The notes below the pieces were generated by a model, which was not told where the DNA came from, ran no database searches, and saw only the letters and a list, made by a program, of their open reading frames with translations. From the IMG/VR virus record IMGVR_UViG_2541047915_000012: a DNA stretch of 38,067 nucleotides. One strand, written 5' to 3'. Within the stretch, counting starts at the first letter, position 1, and each line of letters opens with the position of its first letter. Shown here piece by piece: positions 1 through 25,204 of the stretch. Source of the stretch: a virus. Its lineage: Duplodnaviria > Heunggongvirae > Uroviricota > Caudoviricetes. Both the position numbers and the translations under genes were made by a program.

Positions 1-97
1 AGTCTTGAGTCTTGAGTCTTGAGTCTTGAGTCTTGAGTCTTGAGTCTTGAGTCTTGAGTCTTGAGTCTTGAGTCTTGAGTCTTGAGTCTTGAGTCTT
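1..97 (-). repeat. Tandem heptanucleotide repeat tract (AAGACTC on the minus/coding strand); 13 full copies plus a partial copy cut by the window edge
   Basis: Plus strand reads GAGTCTT x13 (7-97) with 6 nt of a further unit at 1-6; all copies perfect; lies inside the 5' coding end of the minus-strand ORF starting at 102. Confidence 0.97.
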
Positions 98-102
98 AAC
101 AT
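1..102 (-). CDS. neuO: 5' end of a neuO-like phase-variable O-acetyltransferase gene (partial; continues beyond window start)
   Basis: Minus-strand ATG at 102..100 with AGGA upstream; ATG-TTA followed by the repeats translates to MLRLKTQDSRLKTQDS...; repeat unit and position downstream of an endosialidase-like tailspike match the described neuO locus of K1 prophage CUS-3; gene body not in window. Confidence 0.55.
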   Translation of the reverse strand, partial: MLRLKTQDSRLKTQDSRLKTQDSRLKTQDSRLKT

Positions 103-255
103 ATTAGTATCCTACGTTATTTTACCACTAGTTACTTTTCTTGTCATTAAAAAGCATTTAAATTTTTATATTTAATTTCGTTGACGTCAATGTTTTTTGC
201 CAATGTACTTACTTCTTTATGTGATCAGTTCATATTTTTGACGCCAACGAAACAT

Positions 256-3201
256 TTAGTGCTTCCCTTCTATTAAGTCTAACCTAGCTTTTATTCTTTC
301 TATTTCTCTGCGCTGCCATGCTGCCTCGATATAGAATAAGAGATCAGGTCTGACCCCCCATCTAGATCCTGCTGGCGTTATTTCAACGCGCTCAATGATG
401 TCTTCCATTACCATCACTGGATTATCATCCTCATCAACAATGATGCTCCCGTCATTATCAGTCAGCGGCATTTCCCTTTGGCCAGTAATGACGTCATCAT
501 ATACTGCGGGATAATCGTCATAGCAAAGAAAGGCATAGCGGCATGTTGTGCTTTCTTCTTCCATGAGTCCGTGAGAAATAAGAACATCACGAAGTTGCTG
601 CGCGATTACACCATGATGTATCCTCGCCCCTTCTTCCCCCTTTATAGCGACAGCGTTCAGCCATTTATAAGCGATATACCTGACGTCACCCCAGGCATCC
701 AGCAATGTTTCGTCAGGAGAGACCGGCTCTGTCTTTAATGTTCCGTCACTGGTAACCACAGGATTGGAGCCAAGATAAACTATCGAGAACCTGTTTCCCG
801 GACCACCAAGAGCATTTACATTATCAAGATAAGGTTTAACATCTCCGTTCTCAAAAAGATGTTCGAGTGCGTTATATACCGCGCGACGTGGAGTACTGCT
901 TCTGGAACCATGCAACGTTATCATTGCACCATCTGCTGAAGACGTTGTTTCACCGCCGCTAACGATTAATCTCTGAGCGGTAACATCATCAGACGGTACT
1001 TTCTTCGCAATAATGGCGTAATTACCCTCAAGTTTGACTTCCGCGCGAACTTGTCCTGATGTACCTGCATGGACAGTCAGTGACTGGACGGCAACATCAT
1101 CTGTGAAATCAACGGGTACAGGAACCGTCCTCACGCCTGACGTCGACATAAAAGTAGGAAGCGTTCTGTTAGGAGTGGCTCCGTAGACAAAATCCCTTGA
1201 AACAAATTCTTCCTGTTTAATTTTCACCCTGAAACAATACAAATCAGCCGGGTGACCATCGTGAACATAAGGATATTTTCTGTTGTTATCCCCTATGCTC
1301 CATGGGTTTAGAAAGTCTTCCCCACCGAAAATGTAGTACAGCCAGTTGTCTTTGATACAAACTGAACCAACACCAACCGCAGAGTTAACTATTCCGCCCT
1401 GATAAATCTGATCAGTAACATTAACCCACTCTACATTATCCAGACTCCACTCATTGACGTTAACTCTGGTCATAAATGTTCTTGGATAGTTTCCTGCATA
1501 ACGGTTATCAGGTTCTCCTCCTTCCCACTCACCAAATGCGCGCTCACTGCCAAAAATAATCAGCTCATCGCCAACTTTGGCAAAAGGAAGGTTTGAGTGA
1601 TGAACATTATTTGGGAAGCGAAGAGAATTCCATGATGTACCTAAATCAGAGCTTCTGTGCAATGAACTACCGGGTTGAGTACTTAATGTCCCCCTGGTCG
1701 TCAGATACAGAATGCCATCATAATATTTTACACATGGCTCAGATGCATTCGCCTCATATTCTGCAGGTATGCGTCTGCGAACAAAGCTACCAGGAGAACC
1801 GAAAGCATCAGAGAAATAGAGTATCCCAAGCTCGCGTGGACCAATATCACCATTATGGTAGCCAACAGCAAAACTGTTATCGCTAATCGTCGCAAAACTG
1901 TGAATCTCAGTAACAGGAGTGCTTCCGTCAACAAAAGAAGGAATAGTTCCAAGACTGGTTTTTCTCCATGGTGACGAGTGAAATGATGTACCAAAACTCC
2001 AGTATCTACCCTCGTTATTCTGATCCACATCCTGGGTATTTTGCGTCGTAACTGTAAAAGTATTTTTATCAATAACAGTAGTCACCGTCATATTCCCGGT
2101 AACACCTGTAACACCAGAGTTTGAGAAGTTGACAAAATCACCAGCAAATAATCCGTGATCAGTAATGCGAATATAAGCGACTTGCTGATTTGCTGCTTTC
2201 GTTATACCACCATAAACGCGAAGGCTGCGACTCATTGGGCGATCCCACAACTCTGCAACCTGCAGTTTATTTCCGCTCACGGTCCGCGTCTCAATTACAG
2301 CAAAAAGGCGATTTCTGACAACCCCCATACTCATGCAGTGATAGTTAACTGTGGGATAGTTTTCATGTAAATCTGTAAGCCATTCCGGCGTTGTCCAGGT
2401 CTTCCCGTCATCTCCTGAGCGAACCCATGCAACATGGAGGTTATTTACACCATGGCGGTCTCCAGCCATAAAAGGCGCATAGATGACATTGTCATATACA
2501 AACGTTTTATCCTGCGTCCAGGCGTTGTACCACGGTGTATCTGTAATTTTAAATAACTCTCCCTGGATAAAATCTTCAGAAACATAAAAAAGAGGCTGAC
2601 CCGGTATTCTCTCAAATAAAAAACGAGCATTTTTAAATCGACTGACATCTGGAAGAGTTGATACTTTAAAAGTAAGCCCTCGCCCATCTATCTTTTCACC
2701 ACCTGTTGCAACAGAAAGTAATTCTGATAGAGCTGATGTATCATCATGAACACCATCACCAATAGCCCCCCAACCTCTTACATCATAACTGTCTCTCCAT
2801 CTTGCTATCTGAAGTTTTGGGTATTTATTCGCTCCATCTGGGTCTTCTAATTGCTGCCGTAGTTGATCAGGATCATACTTCAGCACATTCTGGAAATAGA
2901 ACTGCTGTACGCCATACGCATCGTACACAGCCATAGAATGGCCTTGCACAGTTACGAACTTGGCAATCCGTCCGTTATATACAGGGTAACCAGCAGCGTT
3001 AATGATGATTGGTTGCGAAACAGGAACGTGAGAGCCGTCTTCGTTCTCTACATAAACCTGAATCCGGTTTTCAGGATTTACCGGGTCAGTGTCAATTTTA
3101 CCGATATAAATTTTGCCATTGGCTACGGCTTTAAAAGAACGCGCCATAGTGAAGAGTTGCGAAGGCATCGATACAATCACATTGGCTGTAATGTCTGTCA
3201 T
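256..3201 (-). CDS. Tailspike protein, probable endo-N-acetylneuraminidase (endosialidase) with P22-type head-binding N-terminus and C-terminal intramolecular chaperone domain
   Basis: 981-aa ORF, GGAG RBS before ATG at 3201; N-terminal ~110 aa resemble P22 gp9 head-binding domain (MTDITANV...[19 protein letters not shown]...VTVQGHSMA); two sialidase Asp-box motifs SGDDGKTW and SSDLGTSW; C-terminal ~150 aa resemble autocleaving chaperone domains of endosialidases and tail fibres. Confidence 0.75.
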
Positions 3202-3258
3202 TTAATTTGCTCCAGATGCAAAGAATCGCCGCAGCATGGCCACGGTGAATTTTGGGCA

Positions 3259-3281
3259 TAAAAAAACCCAGCCGAAGCTGG
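3259..3281 (-). terminator. Rho-independent terminator between ant and the tailspike gene
   Basis: Minus strand reads CCCAGC-TTCG-GCTGGG followed by TTTTTTT. Confidence 0.6.
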
Positions 3282-3301
3282 GTCGTTGCGTTGGTTATCT
3301 G

Positions 3302-4204
3302 TCAGTAATTATGTACTGAAGGAGGTAATTCTTTATTCTTAAGTCTCATCCATGCGGAAAGATTCGTTGGTCCGTCTGGCTCATTGATATCAACATCTCG
3401 TGTGTGATTGATTAAAACGTCTCTCGCCATATCGATAATACGGGAGAACTCATAACCGCAGTCATGACATCTGCCGGAATAGTTCGATTGAATTTGTTTT
3501 AGCGCCGGATACAGTTCGCGGAATAATGCCTGTGAGCGGTTGGCATAATCCCATAGCCATACAAGGCTGTTTGCTTCTTTTGCAGAAAGCTCGTTGGTTT
3601 TCTTCTCTTGTTTGCCGATGAACTCACCTTCAAGCACTACCCTGTGGATGTACTCTACTGCTTGTGGTATCTGAGATGCATCAAGCTCTTCAATACTTTC
3701 CACATTGAAACGCTGATGAATCATTGCATAAGCTTCTGGGTACATTAGATGCTTTTTGCTGACTAGCATATTTACAGCATCACGAAGCGGAGTCCTGTCA
3801 TCAACAGATGTTTTCTTCCGTGCATTTGCTGCCTCTCCCTTTGTCCAGTAGTCATGCAGCACAGTAAAGCATTCTTCCTGGTACTGAATCAGTTTATCGC
3901 GGATGTCAGCACGAACTTTCTCAGGGTTGATGCTGAACAGCCATCCATTTAACTTCTTCAAAGGAAGGCAGAGTAGCTTACGAAGCTTACCATCAGCGGC
4001 AACCATGTTCATATGAACACAGTTGAATTTGCTAATCTGCTTCATGAGTTTTGTTTGCTGCGTTGACCAGCTCATTCCGAGGTTTTCAACGATTGGCTTC
4101 ATCGCAACATATGCAACTCCGGCAGCCATGGCGGTGATAATTTGCTGACCGTTGAATGGCACGTAAGAGGTGTTCACTGCTTCTAAAATTGCTATACTAT
4201 TCAT
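3302..4204 (-). CDS. ant: Antirepressor Ant (P22 immI type)
   Basis: 300 aa from ATG at 4204 ([21 protein letters not shown]...) with GGAG RBS; matches recalled P22 Ant length and N-terminus; tool ORF has a GTG-initiated 22-codon upstream extension judged spurious. Confidence 0.75.
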
Positions 4205-4436
4205 GTTGGTTTTTCTCCACGGATTTACCGACAACCGAAGCCCTGACTGTTCCAGCAGTTGGGGCTTCACTGTTTTGATTTCTTTGCCGCATCAAGCATC
4301 ACTTCTGAAAACGTGCGCTTGCCACTGAATACTCTTTCTCTTCTCAATTTTTCGTTCGTGCCAAATGATTCGCCATGAACAAAATTTGGTCTTAAAATGG
4401 TAATCGCAATCTCTTTGACTACTGCATCCAAGCGAA

Positions 4437-4589
4437 TCACACCGTTACCCCCTCTCTCTTCAGGCTGTCTATCAGGCGCTTGATAACCTCTGAGTTAAAC
4501 GACCTGCACTCTTCCTTTGCCCTGCTACCGATAGCATCCTTTAACGACTGCGGCATCCTTACCAAAATCTTACTTATTTCTTTCTCCAT
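4437..4589 (-). CDS. arc: Arc-like ribbon-helix-helix repressor
   Basis: 50 aa from ATG at 4589 with GGAGGG RBS; ...RSFNSEVIKRLIDSLKREG resembles P22 Arc (...RSVNSEIYQRVMESFKKEG); tool ORF starts at an upstream TTG. Confidence 0.7.
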   Translation of the reverse strand: MEKEISKILVRMPQSLKDAIGSRAKEECRSFNSEVIKRLIDSLKREGVTV

Positions 4590-4703
4590 GTTACCCTCCA
4601 CGCAAACAACTCTTTTCGAATACAAAAGATAGCAAAGTGAGTATATCTAGTCAAAATTTTTTTGCATACACTTTGCTATCAAATTGAATACCAAAGGTGT
4701 TAT
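4590..4703. promoter_or_regulatory. Divergent Pant/Pmnt control region with operator-like inverted repeats
   Basis: Between divergent arc and mnt; minus-strand -35 TTGACT (complement of 4651-4656); perfect 12-bp inverted repeat GATAGCAAAGTG (4628-4639) / CACTTTGCTATC (4669-4680) flanking it. Confidence 0.5.
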
Positions 4704-4952
4704 ATGGCAAAGGGTGTGTCAATTTCTCCAACTACGGTAAGAATCCCTGAATCTTTACGCGAGGCTCTTGCTGTCAGAGCATCAAAAAATGGTCGCTCTG
4801 TTAACTCCGAGATCGTCATGATTTTGCAAGCCGCGATTGATGAAGATAGGTCGCCAAAGTCAGTTGAGTCATTTGCTCAGCAAGAAGCTGATAAATTCAA
4901 AGAGGCGCTACTTGAGACGCTAAAGACCATGTATGCTAAGGATGAAAAATAA
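4704..4952 (+). CDS. mnt: Mnt-like repressor (Arc/MetJ family)
   Basis: 82 aa from ATG at 4704 (AGGTG RBS); ...ASKNGRSVNSEIVMILQAAI... resembles P22 Mnt (...EANGRSMNSELLQIVQDAL). Confidence 0.7.
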   Translation: MAKGVSISPTTVRIPESLREALAVRASKNGRSVNSEIVMILQAAIDEDRSPKSVESFAQQEADKFKEALLETLKTMYAKDEK

Positions 4953-5488
4953 TGCTGCACACAATTCATTTCTTATGCCCTGTTAACACTGCCACTGTTG
5001 GGCAACTTCAGAACCACTGTCTCACCGCATTATCTCAAGGCGCAACTGAATTAAATATCCATATATCAAGTCAGGGAGGGGAAACTGCTGCTGGCTTTAC
5101 TGCGTATAACTTTCTTAAGTCACTCCCTGTTACCGTTAGAACTCACAACATAAGCAATGTTGAATCCATAGCTAATATCGTTTTCCTGGCTGGCTCAGAA
5201 CGTTTCGCAAACCCATTATCAAGATTCCTGTTACATCCTCTATTATGGTGCTTTGCCTCCCCAGCCGCCGACCATGCCAGATTGAGAGAGTACGGGAAAT
5301 GCCTCGATAACGATCTTGATCGCTTCGTTGAGACGTTCAATATCGACATCGGAACCCATATTAGGTGGGCATCCCTGATAGCAGACTCGACCATTTTGGA
5401 TGCTAACAAGGCTCTTGAGCATGGCATAATTAATTCCATAAAAACTGCAAGGCTGGCATCCAATCAGGCAAACTGGTGGGTTGTTTGA
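4952..5488 (+). CDS. ClpP-like serine peptidase (Clp/crotonase fold), function unknown
   Basis: 178 aa; start overlaps mnt stop (TAATG). Alignable by eye to E. coli ClpP: IHISSQGG vs YINSPGG, ...VESIANIVFLAG vs ...AASMGAFLLTAG, SRFLLHP vs SRVMIHQP, ALEHGIINSI vs AVEYGLVDSI; candidate Ser/His/Asp triad present. Confidence 0.55.
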   Translation: MLHTIHFLCPVNTATVGQLQNHCLTALSQGATELNIHISSQGGETAAGFTAYNFLKSLPVTVRTHNISNVESIANIVFLAGSERFANPLSRFLLHPLLWCFASPAADHARLREYGKCLDNDLDRFVETFNIDIGTHIRWASLIADSTILDANKALEHGIINSIKTARLASNQANWWVV

Positions 5489-5510
5489 TGGGTAAATCAT
5501 GATTACTCCT

Positions 5511-5536
5511 TATAAAAAACCCACCTGACGGTGGGT
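5511..5536 (-). terminator. Rho-independent terminator immediately after the YafO-like gene (bidirectional position between convergent genes)
   Basis: Minus strand: TAA-ACCCACC-GTCA-GGTGGGT-TTTTTAT; perfect 7-bp stem, 4-nt loop, T-run. Confidence 0.75.
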
Positions 5537-5986
5537 TTAGTCAAACATAGTGTTTCTAAAGTCTCTCGCATACCCTGCTAACACTCTCATTCTATTATGA
5601 TTGTTAGCAGACATGTGAGCTACAGGATGAAAAAGAGCAATCAATGAATACCTGTTCTCATCAAAAAGATTTTGTGCATAAACGAGAGCGGTATTGGATG
5701 TTTTATGCCACTGCAACTTTTGCGGTGTGCTGATATCTGTGCCATTTTTTATTGGCTCAAATTTATTTTCACCAATTGCTAAATGAAGGTGCATAAGGCC
5801 TGCATCTTCAATATCAGGAGGTCGATGATAAGAGGTGTCTCTGCCAAAATAGCTGGGCAACGTTCCCGTAGACTTGTAGATGATAAAATCATCTACAAGT
5901 GTTTGTTTTAAATCAGGAAACTCAACAAAAACCGGGGAGAAAAAATAGTCAAAACTATCCTGATTATATTCCACGGTTACTTGCAT
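5537..5986 (-). CDS. YafO-family toxin-like protein (putative ribosome-dependent mRNA interferase)
   Basis: 149 aa, ATG at 5986 with GAGGT RBS overlapping upstream stop. Blocks shared with recalled E. coli YafO: DFIIYKSTGTLPSYFGRD vs DFISYKRDGVLPDIFGRD; MHLHLA vs AHIHLA; LIALFHPVAH...NNHNRM vs LIAILKPEPH...DNNQMH; C-terminal DFR vs AFR. Confidence 0.55.
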   Translation of the reverse strand: MQVTVEYNQDSFDYFFSPVFVEFPDLKQTLVDDFIIYKSTGTLPSYFGRDTSYHRPPDIEDAGLMHLHLAIGENKFEPIKNGTDISTPQKLQWHKTSNTALVYAQNLFDENRYSLIALFHPVAHMSANNHNRMRVLAGYARDFRNTMFD

Positions 5987-5994
5987 GTTTTACC

Positions 5995-6561
5995 TCAGTG
6001 GAAGTTACCAGAGTGAAACACACGAGTCCCGTGCTCAGCAAGCGCACGCAAACCAGCCATATCTACGGAACTATCAAAAACAACCGGAACACATGAGCGT
6101 TGTTTAATAAGACTATTCAGGTTGGTTACGGCAGATCTGGCATCAGCAACAACGATATAGATATCTCTTGCGATCTCTTTAAAATCAGCAGAAGCTTCTT
6201 TGAATACCGATTTCATTGCCCCTTCAAGTCCTCTCAATTGATGCTCTATCAATCGAGACTTTTCTGGTTCAATGATAGACAACACATTGTCTACATTCTC
6301 ATCGGTAGCGTTTGCAAGAACACGATAAGCGTATTTCAGCATTCGAGACAATTCTTTAATCGAAGACACCGCCTCATGAAGCTCATCATTAGCCCGTTCA
6401 CTGCTGAATGAGGATTGATGGTAAGCGTGCTGAACGTTATCAGTAACAACCACCTCACAACTGAACGCAGAAGCTTGCTGTAATAGCAAACCTATTGCGA
6501 CTCCAGCTTTGGCAGCGTTCAAGCTAAACATTTCATCAATCCCATTAGTCTCATTGCTCAT
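5995..6561 (-). CDS. Hypothetical protein, upstream operon partner of the YafO-like gene (not recognisably YafN/RelB/Phd-like)
   Basis: 188 aa from ATG at 6561 with perfect AAGGAGG RBS 5 nt upstream; stop is 8 nt before the YafO-like ATG; tool ORF begins at an upstream TTG. Confidence 0.6.
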   Translation of the reverse strand: MSNETNGIDEMFSLNAAKAGVAIGLLLQQASAFSCEVVVTDNVQHAYHQSSFSSERANDELHEAVSSIKELSRMLKYAYRVLANATDENVDNVLSIIEPEKSRLIEHQLRGLEGAMKSVFKEASADFKEIARDIYIVVADARSAVTNLNSLIKQRSCVPVVFDSSVDMAGLRALAEHGTRVFHSGNFH

Positions 6562-6736
6562 ACAAACCTCCTTCTTATCGGAGATTATCAATAGCTATGC
6601 ATCCATTGAATACACGCTATGCGCAATAAGTTTACGTCACGTGATATCATTATGCAACCACCGTTCTATCACCGACTAACTTTACTCCCACTCCTATACA
6701 TCATCTGGTATCCTGCGCAAAACTAAGGAGGTTGGT

Positions 6737-7087
6737 GTGAATGCTCAGTCTGTCATCATGGTTTTCCTTGGGCTGATTGTCGCAAAACTATATCCAGACT
6801 GGTGGAAAGGGGCATTAGCTACTGTCGCCATCTATTTGCTTTTATCCATCGTTAAGCGATCACTCGCTGAGACCGTAAATCAAGCAAAACGTTTCTCATT
6901 TAAGAGTTTAATAAACTATGTTACTGGGCTTATTTTTTGCCTTTCAATTCTGATCGCTTCGGCTTTTTTGCCCGTATCAATAGCTAATTTTTTTGGCGCA
7001 CCATATGAGGTAGGTTATCTATTCTCTGTTTCCTGTCTTGCCATTGCTCTTCTTTACCTGTGGACGAGATCAAAGAATAAAAATTAG
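6737..7087 (+). CDS. Small integral membrane protein (about 4 predicted TM helices), candidate superinfection-exclusion-type protein
   Basis: 116 aa, GTG start preceded by AAGGAGG; hydrophobic stretches VIMVFLGLIVAKLY, ALATVAIYLLLSIV, LIFCLSILIASAFLPVSIANFF, VGYLFSVSCLAIALLYLW; divergent from the 5995-6561 operon. Confidence 0.55.
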   Translation: MNAQSVIMVFLGLIVAKLYPDWWKGALATVAIYLLLSIVKRSLAETVNQAKRFSFKSLINYVTGLIFCLSILIASAFLPVSIANFFGAPYEVGYLFSVSCLAIALLYLWTRSKNKN

Positions 7088-7104
7088 CCATCCGTGGCTG
7101 CCAG

Positions 7105-9121
7105 TTATTGAGCTTCTTTTTGTGATGCCTGTGCGACTCTGGTGAGCGATTGTGTGACCGTACTGATCGCTCTGTCATATGCTGTGCTACCTTTTGGCGT
7201 ATTTGCCAGACGTAACAAGGCATTTCGTATAACAGGGCTTTCGTATGCCTTCGCAGCTCCTCCTACGACACCAGCAGCAGGAACAACAAACGCAGCCGTT
7301 TTTAGCATCCCCGCTAATACTGCTGCGTTTATGATGCCACCACCAACTAACAATCCATAAAGCTGCTGACCATTTAAGTTTTGAACGTTCGCTTTTGCCG
7401 CGTGTCTTGTATCGTTGAGGTATTTAATAACGCCGTCCAGTTCCTTTCCATGTACGCCTTTAAAGAAAGTTGCTGATTGCTTCCTGTTCCGGTGTAACGC
7501 ATTAATAAACTTTTCAACACTAATATTTCCAGACGGATCAGTCGCCTTATCTACAGCATTCTGAACTATGGCTGCTCGTGCGTTTTGCCTACCATTGTCA
7601 TCCAGAAGCCTGTAAAGCTGAGAACGTTCTGATGGGTTTTGGCTAAAAACGAGTTTTGTTACATCCTCAGGTGTAGCCTTGCCGCTGGCTATTGCCTTTT
7701 GAACGCGCGTTCTTCCCATCATGTCATTGAATCTAGCCCATGAGCGATCAACCCTAGACATATTGGCAGCTTCTTCTGAGCCTAGTTTTTGGGATACTGC
7801 TTTTTTCATATCCGCTGTATATGCCTTGTAGACAATATCGCTGGCTTTCTGGAGCGTGTCTTTATCAACAGTCTCGTTTGAATTCATGAACCGCTTTCGA
7901 AGGTCAGTTCTGTTTTCTCTCGCCAGACGCAGGTCATTGGGTCCGCTGGTGATATCGTCTTTAAATTGCTGCAAGACTTTTACCGCGGCTCTATCCTGAG
8001 ATTTGCCCGGGCGGCTTAACACGGCAATCTGATTGTCGATAGCTTTTACCGTGTTTGAGAGATCGACAGGGGTATCCCCCATAGCGTCAATTATGCGGTT
8101 ATATCGCTTTCCTGCTGCCTCAATGAATTTTTGTTGCCCTTTAGTCGCAGATTCATAAAGCTGTTTATCAGAAATGCCACCCAGACCATCGCTAAATGTT
8201 CTGACTAAATTTTCTCGTGCTTGTTGTTGATTCAGCCGATTCTTACCGGTTCCAAAAAAAAGGAACTCTTTCGCCTAATGTCTGAGCCTGACTCTGCATA
8301 AAGGTTTTATCTTTCAGCGTGTCACTGGTCATTAACGGCAGGTTTCTTTCCGACGCAAAATCGACAGCAGCCTTTGCTTCCGGTGACATCTCACCGCGAA
8401 CAGCCCTGGAAACCGCACTAACTGTATTTTCCAGCCCCTTGCCAACACCACCAATGCCAGCAGAAATTACCGTTTGTGCAGGATCAATATCTTCTCCGCC
8501 AGCAAGGCTGGTGCCACCCTGTAGTGCTAAATCTGTAGCAGCTGATTTCCCTATGGCACCAAGCACCGTTCCAGCCCTGCCCGCTGGTGTGAACGCTAAC
8601 GCATTAGCAAGAAACGAAGTCAGGTCTTGCGGTGATAAACCTGGCTTGTTCAGGGCATAATCACCGGATGGCAGGGAAACGATAGTGTTACCCTTCTCAT
8701 CCTGCCTTAATTTCGCCCCCATACTCTGAAGAATCTTTTCCTGAGACGCGTCGGAGCCGAAAAGTTGAGACCATCCAGCCTTCAGGGCATCCATGCTTAG
8801 TGAGTTCAACTCAGGGGCAGCCCCAACATTTTGCAGTCTCTCCATTTCTGGTGTCATTCGGCTTTCACCGGTAACGGCATCGCGCATTGCAGCACCTAAA
8901 ACAGCCCCTTGCTCAGCAGAGCGATCTAGTCCTTCCTTCTGCTGAGTGGCAAGCTGTGCATATCCTGATGCAAGTGAGTTGTCTGCTGGCGATTGCTGAA
9001 CACCTTGTTGTGTTGGCGCTGACTGACCAGCAAAATACTCATCAATGGCGGACCCAATATCTTCCGTGCTCGTACCATCAGGAAAGGTAAATGTCTTACC
9101 ATTTGCAGTTACTTTCATCAT
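7105..9121 (-). pseudogene. Ejection protein gp16 homolog with reading frame interrupted at an A8/T8 homopolymer
   Basis: Two same-strand ORFs (8243..9121, 292 aa; 7105..8082, 325 aa) where P22 has one gene 16; the downstream ORF frame stays open upstream through the homopolymer at 8254-8261, so a 1-nt change would fuse them (~670 aa). Confidence 0.5.
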
Positions 9122-10569
9122 TCCACCGTAAATTGAATGCCTGATTTTGACGTGTAGCTACCTCCTGCTGATTGCTGAGTAGCTGGCTGTTGCCTTGATG
9201 ATTTCTTCCCGCCATTACCAACATTAACGTTATATTGCTGGTTGTAATTGTCGGTATATTGCTGAATGTCGCGCATTGATTGTTGCAGCGCTTCAGGACT
9301 TGAGAAATCAGGCTTTGGCATACCCTGAAAATACCTATTGGCCTCTGCTTCGGTGTTGATGCCAGATGCCCCCATATCTCGGGCTGCTGCAATCCCCTGA
9401 TTTTGCATTTTGCCCATGATTCGCTGTGCAGCGTTGTATAGCCTCCTCTCCTCAACACCAGATGCCCTGCTACGAATATCTGCACCAAGAGCAAAAGAAC
9501 CTGAAGAACCTGTAATACCTGTCATGAAGCCAAGATCGTCAATTGATGCGCCAGAAATTGCATCAAGATCTTTCTTCATTTCGTAATTCTGTGCATTAGC
9601 TGCCGATGTAGCCGGAGCAGCAATAGAACTGGCGGGGACGCGAATCATATTGCCCTCGTTGTCTATTCCTTCGTAGAACGCATTAGCACCAGCGCCGTGA
9701 AGCTTCCTACCAACCGTTACCGTTCTGCCATCTGCCAGTTGCACAACATTCTCCCCGCCAGCATCAGGACGACCTCGAACACGAAGATATGTCTTTTGTT
9801 GCTCTGGAGACAGGCTGTTGAAATATTGATATTCTTTAACAGATGCAGGAACAGCACCTCCAGCAGTGCGCAGGGAGTTTTCACGGCTAACAGCAATGCT
9901 TTGCGCCTTTAAACCTTCCCCAGCTTTATTGCTGCGAATCGTCTCTGCCAACTTGCCACGCTCAATATCCCGACCTTCCATTTGATCTTTGATATCGAAA
10001 TACTTCTCATGACCGAGAGAAAATAGTGCCAGATTACCTGCGAAGTGCTGGAAGCCCTGCGGGTCATTAACCTGCATTTCCGCAATAGTTTCTGGAGGGA
10101 TACCTAAACGACGCATCTCCTTTTCGTTATCCATCATGAACCTGCCAAATGCACCCGGACCAAGCGACGAAGCGACCTGAGCCTTAAGCGCCAGATTGCC
10201 AAAATCATCCCGCTGGGCGTCATCGACATACCCCATGCCTTTACGGACTTCCTCAAACTCTTCGGGGAATGCTGTAATAAGATTACGCATCTGCTCCCTG
10301 TCGCCGGACGCATAAGCATCCGCATAACCTTTCTGGAATGCCGCTTTACGCTCCTGCTTTTGCTGCTGCTTATAAATATCAGCAACTCCAGCCAGACCAC
10401 GAAGACCTGTCAGAGCAACGTTATTTGCACCTGATCGAGCCAGTTCATTGTTTTCGCGGATCAGACCAAGCGTTGCGTTAATGTCGCTTGCCTTTGGCGC
10501 ATTCTCATTTTGCGTACCGATGCCAGCCAGAAACCCACCAGAATTAATACCCTGTTGCCACGTAGCCAT
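9118..10569 (-). CDS. Ejection protein (P22 gp20-like)
   Basis: 483 aa; position between gp7-like and gp16-like genes and size match P22 gene 20. Confidence 0.6.
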
Positions 10570-10579
10570 TGATTACCCC

Positions 10580-11272
10580 TTAAAACAACGAGCCAAGCAG
10601 ACCAAGACCAGCACCGATACCAGCACCCCACGGAGTTGATAGCTCGAGAGCACTGGCTATGCCACCACCCAAAAGCGCACCGGATGCAGCACCACTAACA
10701 CCCTGCTGCAATGCTGACGGTCGGTTGGCGTTTGCCGCTGCAAGAGCCGCGCTTTGCTGTGAAATCTGACTCATGTTGTTGGCATATGTTTGCCCGGCGT
10801 TTGCCTGCCCCTGAAGAGCGCCAAGACCGATATTTGCCAGGTTGTTGTAATTGTTCATTTGTCCAGATAGCCATTGCTGACCAAGCGTTGGTGCGATTGT
10901 TGCTAACTGATTACTGGTTGCGGTGGAACCCAATCCACCTGTTGCTTCCGCTGCCGCCAGACTCTGATAGCGAGCCTGACCTGCAAGGTCTTTATACTGC
11001 TGAGAGTTGTAATACTGGTTAAGTGCCTGACCTTGCCCTTCCAGAGACGATAAGTTCTCAAGGCTGCCGACATACTTCCCAGCCAGAGGAGTAAACAGCT
11101 TCAGGTTGTTCATGATGGTGTTGAACTGCTGATTTTGCAGGTCTGCGGCATACTTCTGAGCTTCTGCTGCATACTTTGCGCTTTTATCAGAACTGCCACC
11201 TTTCCCGCCTTTTTCAGGGTAATAAGGTTCCTCGCCGCGCAGTTTTCTGCCCAGCGTAAATGCATATAACAT
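10580..11272 (-). CDS. Ejection protein (P22 gp7-like)
   Basis: 230 aa, Gln/Ala/Gly-rich with glycine-rich hydrophobic C-terminus; synteny and size match P22 gene 7. Confidence 0.6.
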   Translation of the reverse strand: MLYAFTLGRKLRGEEPYYPEKGGKGGSSDKSAKYAAEAQKYAADLQNQQFNTIMNNLKLFTPLAGKYVGSLENLSSLEGQGQALNQYYNSQQYKDLAGQARYQSLAAAEATGGLGSTATSNQLATIAPTLGQQWLSGQMNNYNNLANIGLGALQGQANAGQTYANNMSQISQQSAALAAANANRPSALQQGVSGAASGALLGGGIASALELSTPWGAGIGAGLGLLGSLF

Positions 11273-11274
11273 GG

Positions 11275-11730
11275 CTATCTCCCGTGATTCAGGAAGTCGA
11301 TTAGTTCTTCGCGTGTGGCGCTGTAAAACGTCACGTCATCCACGCCTTTGAAGTATTTCTTGATGGTTCCTACACGCTTAAGGCCAATCATTGCGCAGTA
11401 CATCTGCCCGTGGCGGAATTTGCGTGCAGCAAATGATGTGACGCACTGAACGGTGGTGTTGGTCAGAATGTATCGCCAGAACGCCAGCCCTATTTCCTTG
11501 CTGAAGCCGCGAATCTCTGGCAGGTACATGGCGTGGCAATCGAATGTAAGCGGCTGAATCTCCTGATAGTAAACAATGCCGCCAAACTGACCGTGCACGT
11601 TCACCTCAAAGTAACGGCAATCAGGTTTGTAGTCGTATCCATCACCGTTGTTGCTCCCGGCGATGATGTCAGGGTGATTTCCTACTGCTTCGATCAGGTC
11701 GATGTTTCGCGTTGGTTTGAATGTAATCAT
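11275..11730 (-). CDS. Head/tail assembly protein (P22 gp14-like)
   Basis: 151 aa; located between gp26 and gp7 homologs as in P22. Confidence 0.5.
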   Translation of the reverse strand: MITFKPTRNIDLIEAVGNHPDIIAGSNNGDGYDYKPDCRYFEVNVHGQFGGIVYYQEIQPLTFDCHAMYLPEIRGFSKEIGLAFWRYILTNTTVQCVTSFAARKFRHGQMYCAMIGLKRVGTIKKYFKGVDDVTFYSATREELIDFLNHGR

Positions 11731-12431
11731 CAGTCAATCAGCCCATGTAATCTAAGTGCTGTTTCAAGCGCCAGAATACGCTGCCGCGCCTGCTCCAAAC
11801 CTGTAGCGATAGCTGCGACTTCGGATTGTGTGTACGTAGTGCCGACCGTGTATGACTGGTTAGCGTTGAATGAGCCAAGAAGTGGTGTGCCTGTGGCCGC
11901 TGTCCATCCGGTCTGCCTTGCTCCAACGACCTGAATTCCATCAACTGAATATGATGTTTTTACATCCAGCGGTGACGCAAGAGACTGCGATTCTGTTACG
12001 GTTTTCGATACGTAATCACTCTTAATGTCAGATATATCGCTTTCTACGCCATCCAGTCTTTGGTCAACAGTGACCAGATGCGCCTGAATATCGATAACCT
12101 CATCCAGCAAGTAATCAACATCGCTACGCAGTACAACTATCTTCCCTTCGGCGGTTGTTAACCTGACCTCAAGGAGATTTATCGCTTTTGTGTTTGCGGT
12201 GATTCTTGCATCGTGGTCAGCCAGTTCGACATCCTGTTCATCGTTTTTCACCTGAGCATCGTAAGCGCCCTGACCAGCCTGATTTGCTTTCCCGGCAATT
12301 GCGCCGACATCAGCCCCCTGATTAATGACATACAGCAGGTAAGACTGGCTGAATATATTGCGTGGAAGGATTGATGTATCGAGCCGCGTCGCCTGCACAA
12401 TAACAGGGGTGTTGAGATTCGAATCAGCCAT
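11730..12431 (-). CDS. Tail needle protein (P22 gp26-like)
   Basis: 233 aa from internal ATG at 12431 ([18 protein letters not shown]...); N- and C-terminal regions (...[24 protein letters not shown]) match recalled P22 gp26; start overlaps gp10 stop by 1 nt. Confidence 0.75.
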
Positions 12432-13849
12432 TACTCGATCCTTATCTGGCAGCCAGACAGAGTGACAGGTGACTTCGTGATAACGCGCAATTTGAAGCCG
12501 ACATTTTTCCTGATGCGCCCGACTCGCTTCCACAAAACGCGTTTGTCGTAAACAAACGGTTCATTCTGCTCAATCATCTGCTCACGACCGTAATTGATGC
12601 CGTCAGTGGTTGCAGAGAGAAAAAGGCGGTCGGCGTACTGCGCAACGCCAGTTGAAGATTCAACTTCAAGGTCGAAAACTCTGGCGTTATCCGCTTTGAA
12701 CAGAGGAGTAAACAGCAGATGCTCCTGTTGCTTGTCGTACTGGCTGCTGATGTCGAATTGCAATTTCCCGGTCACGGACTCCAGCTTATCGCCGCACGTT
12801 ATCTGATTGCCTTCGTAAATGAAGTCGATAGCGCGGTACACATCGTCATACAGACCTGTTTTCAGTACACACCATTGCGGAGCATTGGCGCTTGAAGATG
12901 CGTCGTATACGAGGACATGGCGCGGAAGATGGATAATCAGCAGCTCATGCGCATCAAATCGCAGAGACTCCATCACACCATCAGCCAGTTCATCAGCAGT
13001 GTAGGAGCGAAGAATTTTCTCAATGCTCGCGCTGGCGATTGGTGACACCTGCCCGGAACCGATGATGTATACAGACGGCGCACCTGTTGCCGGATTGCTG
13101 ATGAACGCATAGGAATCAGCGAATGGCGTTTTGCAATAGGTTCCGGCGATGCCTTTTTGCACCATCAGTGATGGCTGTGCGACATACAAAGCAGCACCAA
13201 CGGTGGTTGCGCCAGTCAGGGAGAAATATTCAATAGTCGATGAACCAAAGCAGACGATGAAGTCTCGCCATGTCCCGATACCGATGATGCCGTCCGGCTG
13301 CGATTCTGCGCGATATTGTGCACTGTATCGGTCAGGGTGCGATTCGTCTTCAAGGTCAGTGATAAACCATGAATCAGTTCCGTCTTTTGACCACGCATAA
13401 CGCCCACGTAAGCGAGTAATGTCGCGAACTGAACCTAACTCATACTGCGTGAATCCACTGTCTGTAGGCCAGTTTGAGACGGTTTTAACCGTGCCATCAT
13501 AACGATACTCGACCAGTTGACCATTAACGCCTACAGCCTGTGATGTTCGACCATGCGCCATTGATACGCGACCACTTCCGGCGACGTCACCGACTTCGCT
13601 TTCTCCTTTGTACAGCTTGCCGCCACACACGCGATAAACAGCACTCTGCGCCATGTTGTACTCGACGCCGCGCGATATACCATTCACATCAGAACGTTTG
13701 GCAATGCCCGGGAATGAGCGAAGATATCCGCTGCTGTTCAGGATTTCTTTGGGCGTAGCCAACATATTCACTGGCAGATAGTCGATATAGTCGGCGTTTC
13801 GAAAGTCTTTGCCGACACCTTTCATAAGCGGAAGTTGCTGAATCGGCAT
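12431..13849 (-). CDS. Tail accessory protein (P22 gp10-like)
   Basis: 472 aa beginning [16 protein letters not shown]..., same length and N-terminus as recalled P22 gp10. Confidence 0.75.
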
Positions 13850-13858
13850 TTATTCACC

Positions 13859-14320
13859 TCACGTACTCGGATCATCTTTCTCGATGTAAAACCGATTCCA
13901 CGTAAACGCGCTTTTGTTACCACTACCGCGAGGCATGTCATTTCGCCGCTCAAGTGGTGGTATTTTGGTTAAAGCGATACAGATTGTCTGATATGCACTG
14001 TCAGCAGCGGTAAGGAGAGCGTCTGACGGCTGAATGACGTTATCCATGCACACTTGCACAGCGAGTTTCAAAGCGACGCCATCATTTGCCCATGCAGGGA
14101 TGCCTGAATCATCGTCAGGTAACGGCATGATGCCGTTTTCTGTATCAGCAAACTGATACCCAAGCTCGATACCTTTCGCCTGCCATGCTGCCATCATGTC
14201 TTCGAGGTCATTAATGGCATCTTCAATTGCCTGAGGGTCAGCATCTGTCAACGTGGCATTGGAATACAGCCCGGCTTTTCGTAAAGCCTTTAGAACGAGA
14301 TCACCCTTCGTTTTCGCCAT
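13859..14320 (-). CDS. Head completion / tail accessory protein (P22 gp4-like)
   Basis: 153 aa; KTKGDLV..ALRK.G..S.ATLTD..PQ...DA..DLE.MMA.W resembles P22 gp4 N-terminus. Confidence 0.65.
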   Translation of the reverse strand: MAKTKGDLVLKALRKAGLYSNATLTDADPQAIEDAINDLEDMMAAWQAKGIELGYQFADTENGIMPLPDDDSGIPAWANDGVALKLAVQVCMDNVIQPSDALLTAADSAYQTICIALTKIPPLERRNDMPRGSGNKSAFTWNRFYIEKDDPST

Positions 14321-14489
14321 CTTCTTCCGCCTTAGCCACTTTTTGCTTCGTTGCGGTTTCTTCAGGAGTTTTTACCCAACCTTTTTTCAGGTGAGATTTA
14401 ACTTCTTCGTCATCAACAATGATGTAATCGACAGCAAACTGACCGCAGGTGATCATGTTGCCTGGCTTATAGAGCATTGTTCGTGCCAT
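14301..14489 (-). CDS. Small hypothetical protein between coat and gp4 genes
   Basis: 62 aa from ATG at 14489 with GGGAGAAG RBS just downstream of the coat-gene terminator; no recognisable homolog. Confidence 0.35.
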   Translation of the reverse strand: MARTMLYKPGNMITCGQFAVDYIIVDDEEVKSHLKKGWVKTPEETATKQKVAKAEEDGENEG

Positions 14490-23417: not shown

Positions 23418-23796
23418 GTCTTACCCCCAATAAGGGGATTTGCTCTATTTAATTAGGAATAAGGTCGATTACTGATAGAACAAATCCAGGCTACTGTGTT
23501 TAGTAATCAGATTTGTTCGTGACCGATATGCACGGGCAAAACGGCATGAGGTTGTTAGCGCAACCTCATGCCACCCGCTTTCACGAAGGTCATGTGTAGA
23601 AGGCCGCAGCATAACTATCACTGATGAATTCAGGATAGCCAGTGGCTACGGCTCAGGTTGGGTTGTGGCGGTCGGTGCTGAACTCCGACTTAATGACGAT
23701 AGGCGTGTACCGACGCCTCGTTTTACTTCCTCCGCTTTCACGGCTTCACCCTAGACCAGCTTTACGAAATCCTCGTAAACCTAACCGCGGCAGATA
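23418..23796 (-). promoter_or_regulatory. Lambda-like late-operon leader upstream of S (sdi stem-loop, 12-bp hairpin), cut at its upstream end by IS911
   Basis: Minus strand ends ...AATCCCCTTATTGGGGGTAAGAC-ATGAAGATG (CCCC/GGGG stem before the dual start); perfect 12-bp stem GGCATGAGGTTG/CAACCTCATGCC at 23543-23572 followed by GTTTTG; overall sequence closely resembles the lambda leader as recalled. Confidence 0.6.
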
Positions 23797-23868
23797 TGAA
23801 GTGGTTTACTGAATTTGGCCACCTGAACAGAGGTGATATGCTCACCTCAGAACAACACAGGTGCCATA

Positions 23869-25016
<1,148 letters not shown>

Positions 25017-25204
25017 CTCGGTGGCCAGTTTTTGTTGACCACTTCAATATGACCGGCACGGTGTGCCATATCACGGACCGGCGGGTGTCTCGTTCACCTG
25101 ATTAACGCATCAGCCTGCGTATTCACCACAACGATAAGAGTACTGCGCGGCACCTTTCACCAATTCCGCGAGGTCTGCGGGTTCAATGCTCTTACCTGTT
25201 GTGC

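Follow-up and report, generated by a model that had tools for sequence, protein, structure and literature searches.

A ClpP-like gene coupled to mnt in a P22-like prophage of Escherichia coli: a possible accessory ClpP subunit of lysogens

Why should a temperate phage carry a gene for a ClpP-like protein directly behind its repressor gene mnt, and what may such a protein do in the lysogen? The question is raised by IMG/VR record IMGVR_UViG_2541047915_000012, a DNA stretch of 38,067 nucleotides (hereafter the window, meaning the whole stretch analysed) which represents a P22-like (Lederbergvirus) prophage of E. coli and in which the ClpP-like gene occupies positions 4952-5488. The analysis reported here established a two-gene unit in which mnt comes first and the ClpP-like gene second. 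Judged by its sequence, the product is an N-terminally truncated ClpP paralog with a Ser-His pair and no canonical Asp, of the type represented by PpClpP1 of Pseudomonas plecoglossicida. It is considered plausible, with about as much doubt as confidence, that the protein acts as an accessory ClpP subunit expressed in lysogens, where it would retune host Clp proteolysis via mixed complexes.

Homology, fold and catalytic residues

A preliminary description of the locus, made from the letters of the window alone, had aligned the product by eye with E. coli ClpP. The profile search upheld this assignment, since the Pfam model CLP_protease (PF00574) matched with 44.4 bits (cut-off 20.2), residues 24-165 of the protein covering model positions 37-180 of 182. 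The structure prediction, which had been proposed as a check, gave the same answer. The AlphaFold2 (AF2) model was of high quality, with a predicted local distance difference test (pLDDT) of 93 and a predicted template modelling score (pTM) of 0.88, and it displayed the alpha/beta fold of ClpP with the handle helix. Fold matches are given as Foldseek template modelling (TM) scores obtained with this AF2 model; for E. coli ClpP (MEROPS S14, 1yg6) the TM-score was 0.83 with a root-mean-square deviation (rmsd) of 2.2 Å. However, all equivalog models of canonical ClpP failed, with 19-40 bits against cut-offs of 228-361, and the protein did not score as a canonical ClpP with either TIGR00493 (19.2 bits vs 308.6) or PRK00277 (31.3 vs 249).

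The closest solved relative is PpClpP1 (PDB 9UXT), with 38% identity, a TM-score of 0.94 and an rmsd of 1.6 Å. The match extends over residues 3-175 with E = 1.6e-35 when the single sequence is used, and reaches 3e-52 with the family profile. Both proteins share a truncated N-terminus starting from beta-strand 1, the Ser-His pair, a non-acidic residue at the third position of the triad and an extra C-terminal strand, which carries QWSV in PpClpP1 and NWWV in the phage protein. In the latter, an 11-residue C-terminal extension ends with NWWV and residues 173-177 form a beta-strand in the AF2 model. The two differ at the third position, which is Pro151 in PpClpP1 and Ser146 in the phage protein. 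They also differ in genomic setting: PpClpP1 is encoded on the chromosome, in a conserved locus beside an aldo-keto reductase, whereas the phage gene is found on temperate phages and is co-translated with Mnt. The gene and the codons that bear on catalysis are the following.

4952-5488, plus strand: ClpP-like gene with ATG start and 178 codons; the product is identical to RefSeq WP_000903306.1
5165-5167, plus strand: codon of Ser72, the predicted nucleophile (motif VESIA), aligned with E. coli Ser97 and PpClpP1 Ser73
5234-5236, plus strand: codon of His95 (motif LLHP), aligned with E. coli His122 and PpClpP1 His96
5384-5386, plus strand: codon of Asp145, aligned with E. coli Arg170
5387-5389, plus strand: codon of Ser146, at the position of E. 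coli Asp171 and PpClpP1 Pro151

The three-way alignment with PpClpP1 and E. coli ClpP placed Met1 of the phage protein at residue 25 of mature E. coli ClpP, and the first 24 residues, comprising the axial loops or gate and helix A, are therefore absent. The same holds for the family as a whole, as its members begin with beta-strand 1 of the ClpP fold and are devoid of both the axial gate and helix A. An exhaustive profile search delineated this family as at least 274 clusters at 50% identity with E <= 1e-30, most of them with a length of approximately 180-200 amino acids.

A candidate Ser/His/Asp triad had also been proposed, and this proposal survived only in part. Column counts taken over 144 aligned family representatives showed that Ser72 and His95 are invariant (144/144), but the position of the canonical Asp is occupied by Ser146 in the phage protein and by G (62), A (30), P (9), R (9), S (8) or E (7) among the representatives. 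The family is thus characterised by a Ser-His pair without the canonical Asp, since the former residues never vary and the Asp column consists mostly of Gly and Ala. Asp145 is probably the residue that was initially taken for the triad Asp; it was rejected as such, being the equivalent of E. coli Arg170 and not conserved (D, N, Q, S, A, K and E were found in this column among relatives). The SxGG oxyanion motif and Arg84, which corresponds to E. coli Arg111, are both conserved. In comparison with E. coli ClpP, the phage protein has therefore kept the fold, Ser, His, SxGG and Arg84, but it displays only about 20% identity and lacks the mature residues 1-24 as well as Asp171 and Arg170.

The ClpP-like gene is a real gene under strong purifying selection. 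The ratio of nonsynonymous to synonymous substitution rates (dN/dS) was 0.075 in comparison with the Pectobacterium ortholog and 0.069 with a viral copy displaying 69% identity. Of 5426 complete E. coli genomes, 128 encode exactly this protein, and among public contigs it is present on at least 1000. It carries the RefSeq name 'ATP-dependent Clp protease proteolytic subunit', and elsewhere in databases the gene is labelled 'head maturation protease'; both database labels are misleading. With this protein, a family which has only just been characterised, and which has been visible biochemically only since 2026 via a single chromosomal member from Pseudomonas, gains a new phage-borne member. The literature searched did not describe any phage-borne accessory ClpP paralog, and it held nothing relevant on a CUS-3 Clp protein, on the WP accession or on the PhiR12 phages.

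Coupling to mnt and genomic distribution

The features on which the two-gene unit is defined are listed here in the order of the plus strand.

4590-4703, no strand assigned: divergent arc/mnt control region, by analogy with the Pant/Pmnt/Oarc/Omnt region of P22
4704-4952, plus strand: mnt, 82 amino acids, Pfam Arc 41.8 bits, RefSeq 'Arc family DNA-binding protein'
4938-4954, plus strand: coupling junction, with the Shine-Dalgarno sequence AAGGA (4938-4942) within the last mnt codons, followed by TAATG
5517-5538, no strand assigned: G+C-rich hairpin AAACCCACC-TGAC-GGTGGGTTT between the converging ClpP-like and yafO-like genes

The product of mnt is a ribbon-helix-helix repressor of the Arc/Mnt type with a C-terminal coiled-coil tail, and it aligns with the Mnt proteins of P22, Pectobacterium and PhiR12. 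The overlap of its stop codon with the start of the ClpP-like gene, already noticed in the preliminary description, was found to be exact: the stop TAA (4950-4952) and the ATG (4952-4954) share one A. Together with the Shine-Dalgarno sequence lying inside mnt, this overlap supports the translational coupling that had been claimed. Furthermore, the junction AATAATG is identical in all 44 viral loci which combine a close copy of the ClpP-like gene with an upstream ribbon-helix-helix gene. The Mnt proteins encoded upstream at these close loci represent no fewer than five alleles, which are 30-46% identical across the DNA-binding half and include an allele resembling P22 Mnt, and all alleles share the C-terminal tail ...TLKTMYGKDEK, which contains the ribosome-binding site.

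The hairpin downstream of the ClpP-like gene is likely a bidirectional terminator which closes the mnt-clpP unit. It folds with -23.3 kcal/mol (z = -3.1), and the same 42 bp are annotated as 'terminator' in Salmonella phage Emek. The terminator scan missed it because of the short T-run on the plus strand. According to the P22 genome record, the order in that phage is Pmnt, mnt, orf59a and the mnt terminator, beyond which lies sieA under a promoter of its own. This operon layout, taken together with the coupling, suggests that the ClpP-like gene would be expressed from Pmnt in lysogens.

Within the control region, a simple promoter scan identified a Pant-like promoter on the minus strand (4654-4626). 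It is overlapped by a perfect 12-bp inverted repeat (GATAGCAAAGTG / CACTTTGCTATC) at positions 4628-4639 and 4669-4680, of which the arms are 29 nt apart and represent candidate half-sites of an Arc/Mnt operator.

Close relatives of the ClpP-like gene were found to travel with the immI module, of which arc is a part. The cassette ant-arc-mnt-clpP is present in P22-like prophages of Pectobacterium, with 80% protein identity, and also in the lambda-like PhiR12 siphophages, for instance Escherichia phage PhiR12_1 (3606-5618), where it is located between the lambda-type tail genes K and L. From its location in the tail region of PhiR12 it follows that an immI-type module has been transferred as a whole into a virion module to which it is unrelated.

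The slot behind mnt is not reserved for the ClpP-like gene. Salmonella phage S.Kent 1-2-1 (2182-2744) carries an almost identical mnt which is coupled, via ATGA, to an open reading frame (ORF) of 105 codons with a signal peptide instead of the ClpP-like gene, and in P22 the slot is occupied by orf59a. The presence of a different gene behind the same mnt allele in S.Kent 1-2-1 therefore identifies the position after mnt as a hot spot of cargo exchange. Conversely, in Escherichia phage E212 (4516-5033) ant, arc and mnt have largely given way to a remnant of an IstB gene of the IS21 family of insertion sequences (IS), and the ClpP-like gene was kept.

These loci bear directly on a possible toxin-antitoxin pair, in which Mnt would be the ribbon-helix-helix antitoxin and the ClpP-like protein the toxin. 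A ribbon-helix-helix gene overlapping a second gene is indeed typical of type II toxin-antitoxin operons. The co-occurrence pattern nevertheless ruled this candidate out and leaves it very improbable, because either gene is found in the absence of the other: in S.Kent 1-2-1 another second gene follows the same mnt allele, P22 mnt is combined with orf59a, E212 retains the ClpP-like gene after the IS-mediated loss of mnt, and no Mnt-like neighbour was present in 35 of the 80 viral loci or in any of the chromosomal loci.

More distant members of the family (52-75% identity) lack a Mnt neighbour. Each of them stands alone, encoded on the other strand than the lytic operons around it. Their positions are diverse. 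They lie between Rz/LysC and the terminase in lambdoid prophages of Klebsiella and E. coli, between the DNA-circulation and tape-measure genes of Mu-like tails, also near the Q antiterminator gene, and, in Proteus prophages, between N and erf and convergent with gene N, which is the position of sieB in P22. The members from Pseudomonas are chromosomal. For distant members in other phyla, neither a partner ATPase nor a conserved neighbour was found, the genes around them being unrelated housekeeping genes. Overall, the phage-borne branch is well conserved on P22-like, lambda-like and Mu-like prophages of E. coli, Salmonella, Klebsiella, Proteus, Pantoea and Pectobacterium, and it includes K1 and avian pathogenic E. 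coli (APEC) lineages with CUS-3-like prophages.

The slots after mnt, beside gene N and after the lysis genes are also those of known lysogen-expressed accessory genes (morons) such as orf59a, sieA and sieB of P22 or bor of lambda. The ClpP-like genes further resemble morons in their arrangement, as they belong to an operon that is presumably active in the prophage or else lie opposite in strand to lytic operons. In contrast, there is no sequence kinship between these morons and the ClpP-like gene.

The same distribution bears on a role in virion assembly. The gene is annotated as a prohead protease in the GenBank entry of phage phiv205-1, and a comparable function is suggested by PHROG 94 ('head maturation protease'), which was matched with E = 7e-21, although at the domain level only (residues 25-168 on positions 110-254 of 622). 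Phage prohead proteases related to ClpP (NF045542, PHROG 94) do share with the phage protein the fold of the superfamily and a similarity that profiles detect. However, the dedicated head-maturation model (NCBIfam NF045542, Clp_rel_HeadMat) failed with 49.3 bits against a cut-off of 120. A fold search in BFVD returned viral ClpP-like structures with at most 25% identity, that is, distant matches of the prohead-protease kind only. The ClpP-like gene has neither a scaffold nor a capsid fusion partner and does not belong to a head module: as the preliminary description had noted, it is situated outside the morphogenesis cluster, between immI and the ejection-protein genes and on the strand opposite to the late genes. 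According to its genome record, the head module of P22 contains a gene for scaffolding and none for a protease. No proteolytic step takes part in the maturation of P22 proheads. With its position outside the late operon, the relatives in non-structural, opposite-strand slots and a P22 head module free of protease, the earlier statement that the protein is not a capsid maturation protease could be endorsed, and the annotation as prohead protease is hardly credible.

Possible function in the lysogen

PpClpP1 is the only relative that has been characterised, and its biochemistry gives indications on what the phage protein may do. PpClpP1 forms a homotetradecamer with an axial pore of 42.7 Å (PMC12900304). 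Its peptidase activity is 13-fold below that of the canonical paralog and is lost upon exchange of the catalytic Ser or His for Ala, yet replacing Pro151 by Ala or Asp leaves approximately 60% of the activity (PMC12900304). PpClpP1 does not bind ClpX and, alone, degrades neither casein nor GFP-ssrA (PMC12900304). It co-purifies with the canonical ClpP, with which it builds a heterotetradecamer whose activity exceeds that of both homomers (PMC12900304). Similarly, a study of P. aeruginosa ClpP2 from 2026 described an atypical ClpP subunit which retunes the assembly of ClpXP (PMC13056064). ClpP2, Listeria ClpP1 and M. tuberculosis ClpP1P2 are comparable to the phage protein in being accessory paralogs that are weak or inactive alone and modulate ClpXP via hetero-tetradecamers (PMC13056064, PMC12900304). 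They differ from it in being chromosomal and of full length, and in carrying mostly Asp or Asn at the third position of the triad. As a further difference from canonical ClpP, the phage gene does not adjoin clpX.

The characterised relative thus points to co-assembly with the canonical ClpP of the host and not to a free-standing protease. By analogy, the following sequence of events can be envisaged. From the position of its gene, the ClpP-like protein would be produced in lysogens in a fixed proportion with Mnt. Given the 38% identity to PpClpP1, it may form a barrel based on heptamers, with a wide, ungated pore and a weak peptidase activity dependent on Ser and His. Such a barrel would be unable by itself to dock ClpX or ClpA. 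Its rings could instead stack on rings of the canonical host ClpP and give rise to mixed tetradecamers with altered activity. The retuned ClpXP or ClpAP of the host would then serve the prophage or the lysogen, for instance in the turnover of phage regulators or of proteins from a superinfecting phage, and not in virion assembly.

Several observations weigh against an accessory subunit expressed in lysogens. The simple promoter scan did not identify a consensus Pmnt on the plus strand between arc and mnt, and in lysogens of the related phage Kapi1 the expression of mnt was undetectable (PMC12922286). An identity of 38% to PpClpP1 is no guarantee of the same quaternary behaviour with E. coli ClpP. 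The location of relatives in accessory-gene slots is circumstantial evidence of a benefit to the lysogen. Finally, the search of PADLOC-DB v2 did not reveal any match to a defence family at E <= 0.1, a result on which a known anti-phage defence system was rejected.

The phage protein could also act without any host partner, as an autonomous, ungated and weak peptidase that degrades unfolded or small polypeptides, be it ejected proteins of a superinfecting phage, small regulators or Ant. This is close to the idea put forward in the preliminary description. The invariance of Ser72 and His95, the lack of a conserved partner gene in the family and the presence of relatives in slots that in P22 belong to sieA and sieB, two exclusion genes, are all in line with it, as is PpClpP1, which alone assembles its wide-pored homotetradecamer and shows measurable activity dependent on Ser and His. 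However, PpClpP1 alone spares casein and GFP-ssrA and is 13-fold weaker than canonical ClpP, and the PADLOC result also speaks against such an enzyme. An autonomous peptidase is therefore regarded as rather doubtful.

If the phage protein enters complexes with host ClpP, the effect could in principle be negative. A dominant-negative subunit would lower host Clp proteolysis and could, for example, increase the stability of a regulator of phage or host. The phage protein lacks the catalytic Asp and also the N-terminal gate and helix A, by which canonical ClpP communicates with ClpX and ClpA, and PpClpP1 fails to bind ClpX, all of which would fit a poisoning subunit. On the other hand, the PpClpP1P2 heterocomplex is more active and not less, and retained catalysis is argued by the strict conservation of Ser and His. 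Inhibition of the host protease is thus improbable.

Among the roles that an accessory subunit could take, one in superinfection or in the control of induction is attractive in view of the sieA-, sieB- and bor-like positions, which are circumstantial evidence. The action on incoming phage proteins or regulators, which had been suggested initially, is possible. A more far-reaching proposal would be that the ClpP subunit of temperate Enterobacterales phages is a lysogenic-conversion gene, the product of which enters host ClpP rings and reprograms ClpXP and ClpAP, so that particular phage proteins would be degraded, or be spared from degradation, in the lysogen and a proteolysis-based superinfection immunity or induction control is wired to the Mnt/Ant switch; this is put forward as a speculation that is unlikely to hold in full. 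ClpXP and ClpAP govern many phage and host regulators, and a phage ClpP subunit made in lysogens would allow a prophage to alter host proteolysis directly. The locus would become considerably more important if the protein were to co-assemble with host ClpP and to cause a phenotype in the lysogen.

Neighbouring genes and state of the prophage

Over positions 1-14489, the window and a prophage of E. coli ATCC 11775 share approximately 99.98% identity, barring one IS insertion in ATCC 11775. The prophage is one which we take to be of the CUS-3 type, by its likeness to the K1-specific phage CUS-3. The gene order is tailspike, ant, a small ORF, arc, mnt, the ClpP-like gene, the hairpin, the yafO-like gene, an ORF of 198 codons and the ejection-protein genes. 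The members of this series that surround the mnt-clpP unit are given below.

256-3201, minus strand: tailspike, 981 amino acids, with a P22-type N-terminal head-binding region
3302-4204, minus strand: ORF of the antirepressor ant, RefSeq 'phage antirepressor Ant'
4267-4440, minus strand: ORF of 57 codons between ant and arc, RefSeq hypothetical protein
4437-4589, minus strand: ORF of arc, 50 amino acids, divergent from mnt, RefSeq 'Arc family DNA-binding protein'
5537-5986, minus strand: toxin gene of the YafO family, Pfam YafO_toxin 78.9 bits (cut-off 25)
5995-6591, minus strand: ORF of 198 codons, PHROG 8416, E = 2.6e-96

The tailspike is 100% identical to that of the ATCC 11775 prophage, where it adjoins an acyltransferase gene and intS. 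The gene ant is expected to be the one that Mnt keeps silent. The ORF of 57 codons gave no match in a Pfam scan; in the P22 genome record, the interval between ant and arc carries the antisense sar RNA and not a protein gene.

The region from the tailspike to mnt is a target of IS21-family elements in both E212 and ATCC 11775. In the latter, a full ISEc12 is inserted between the tailspike gene and ant (locus 4726-7028).

On the other side of the hairpin, the 198-codon ORF lies 8 nt upstream of the yafO-like gene, and both form a two-gene unit (5537-6591, minus strand) which converges on the ClpP-like gene. The layout of this unit resembles that of a toxin-antitoxin or abortive-infection module. 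It occupies the position of sieA in P22, and other genes are found there in phiv205-1 and E212.

The homolog of a 670-amino-acid 'hypothetical protein' of ATCC 11775, encoded there upstream of the ejection genes at the position of P22 gene 16, is split in the window (7105-9121, minus strand) into two ORFs, 7105-8082 and 8243-9121. At the site of the split the window differs from ATCC 11775 by an indel of 1 bp, which reflects either a frameshifted pseudogene or a sequencing error.

Three elements of the IS3 family, each of approximately 1.25 kb with an rve integrase domain and 99.9-100% alike, were located at 23794-25048, 28338-29587 and 31803-33057. As these three copies lie within the early region, the prophage is probably defective, although mnt and the ClpP-like gene are intact.

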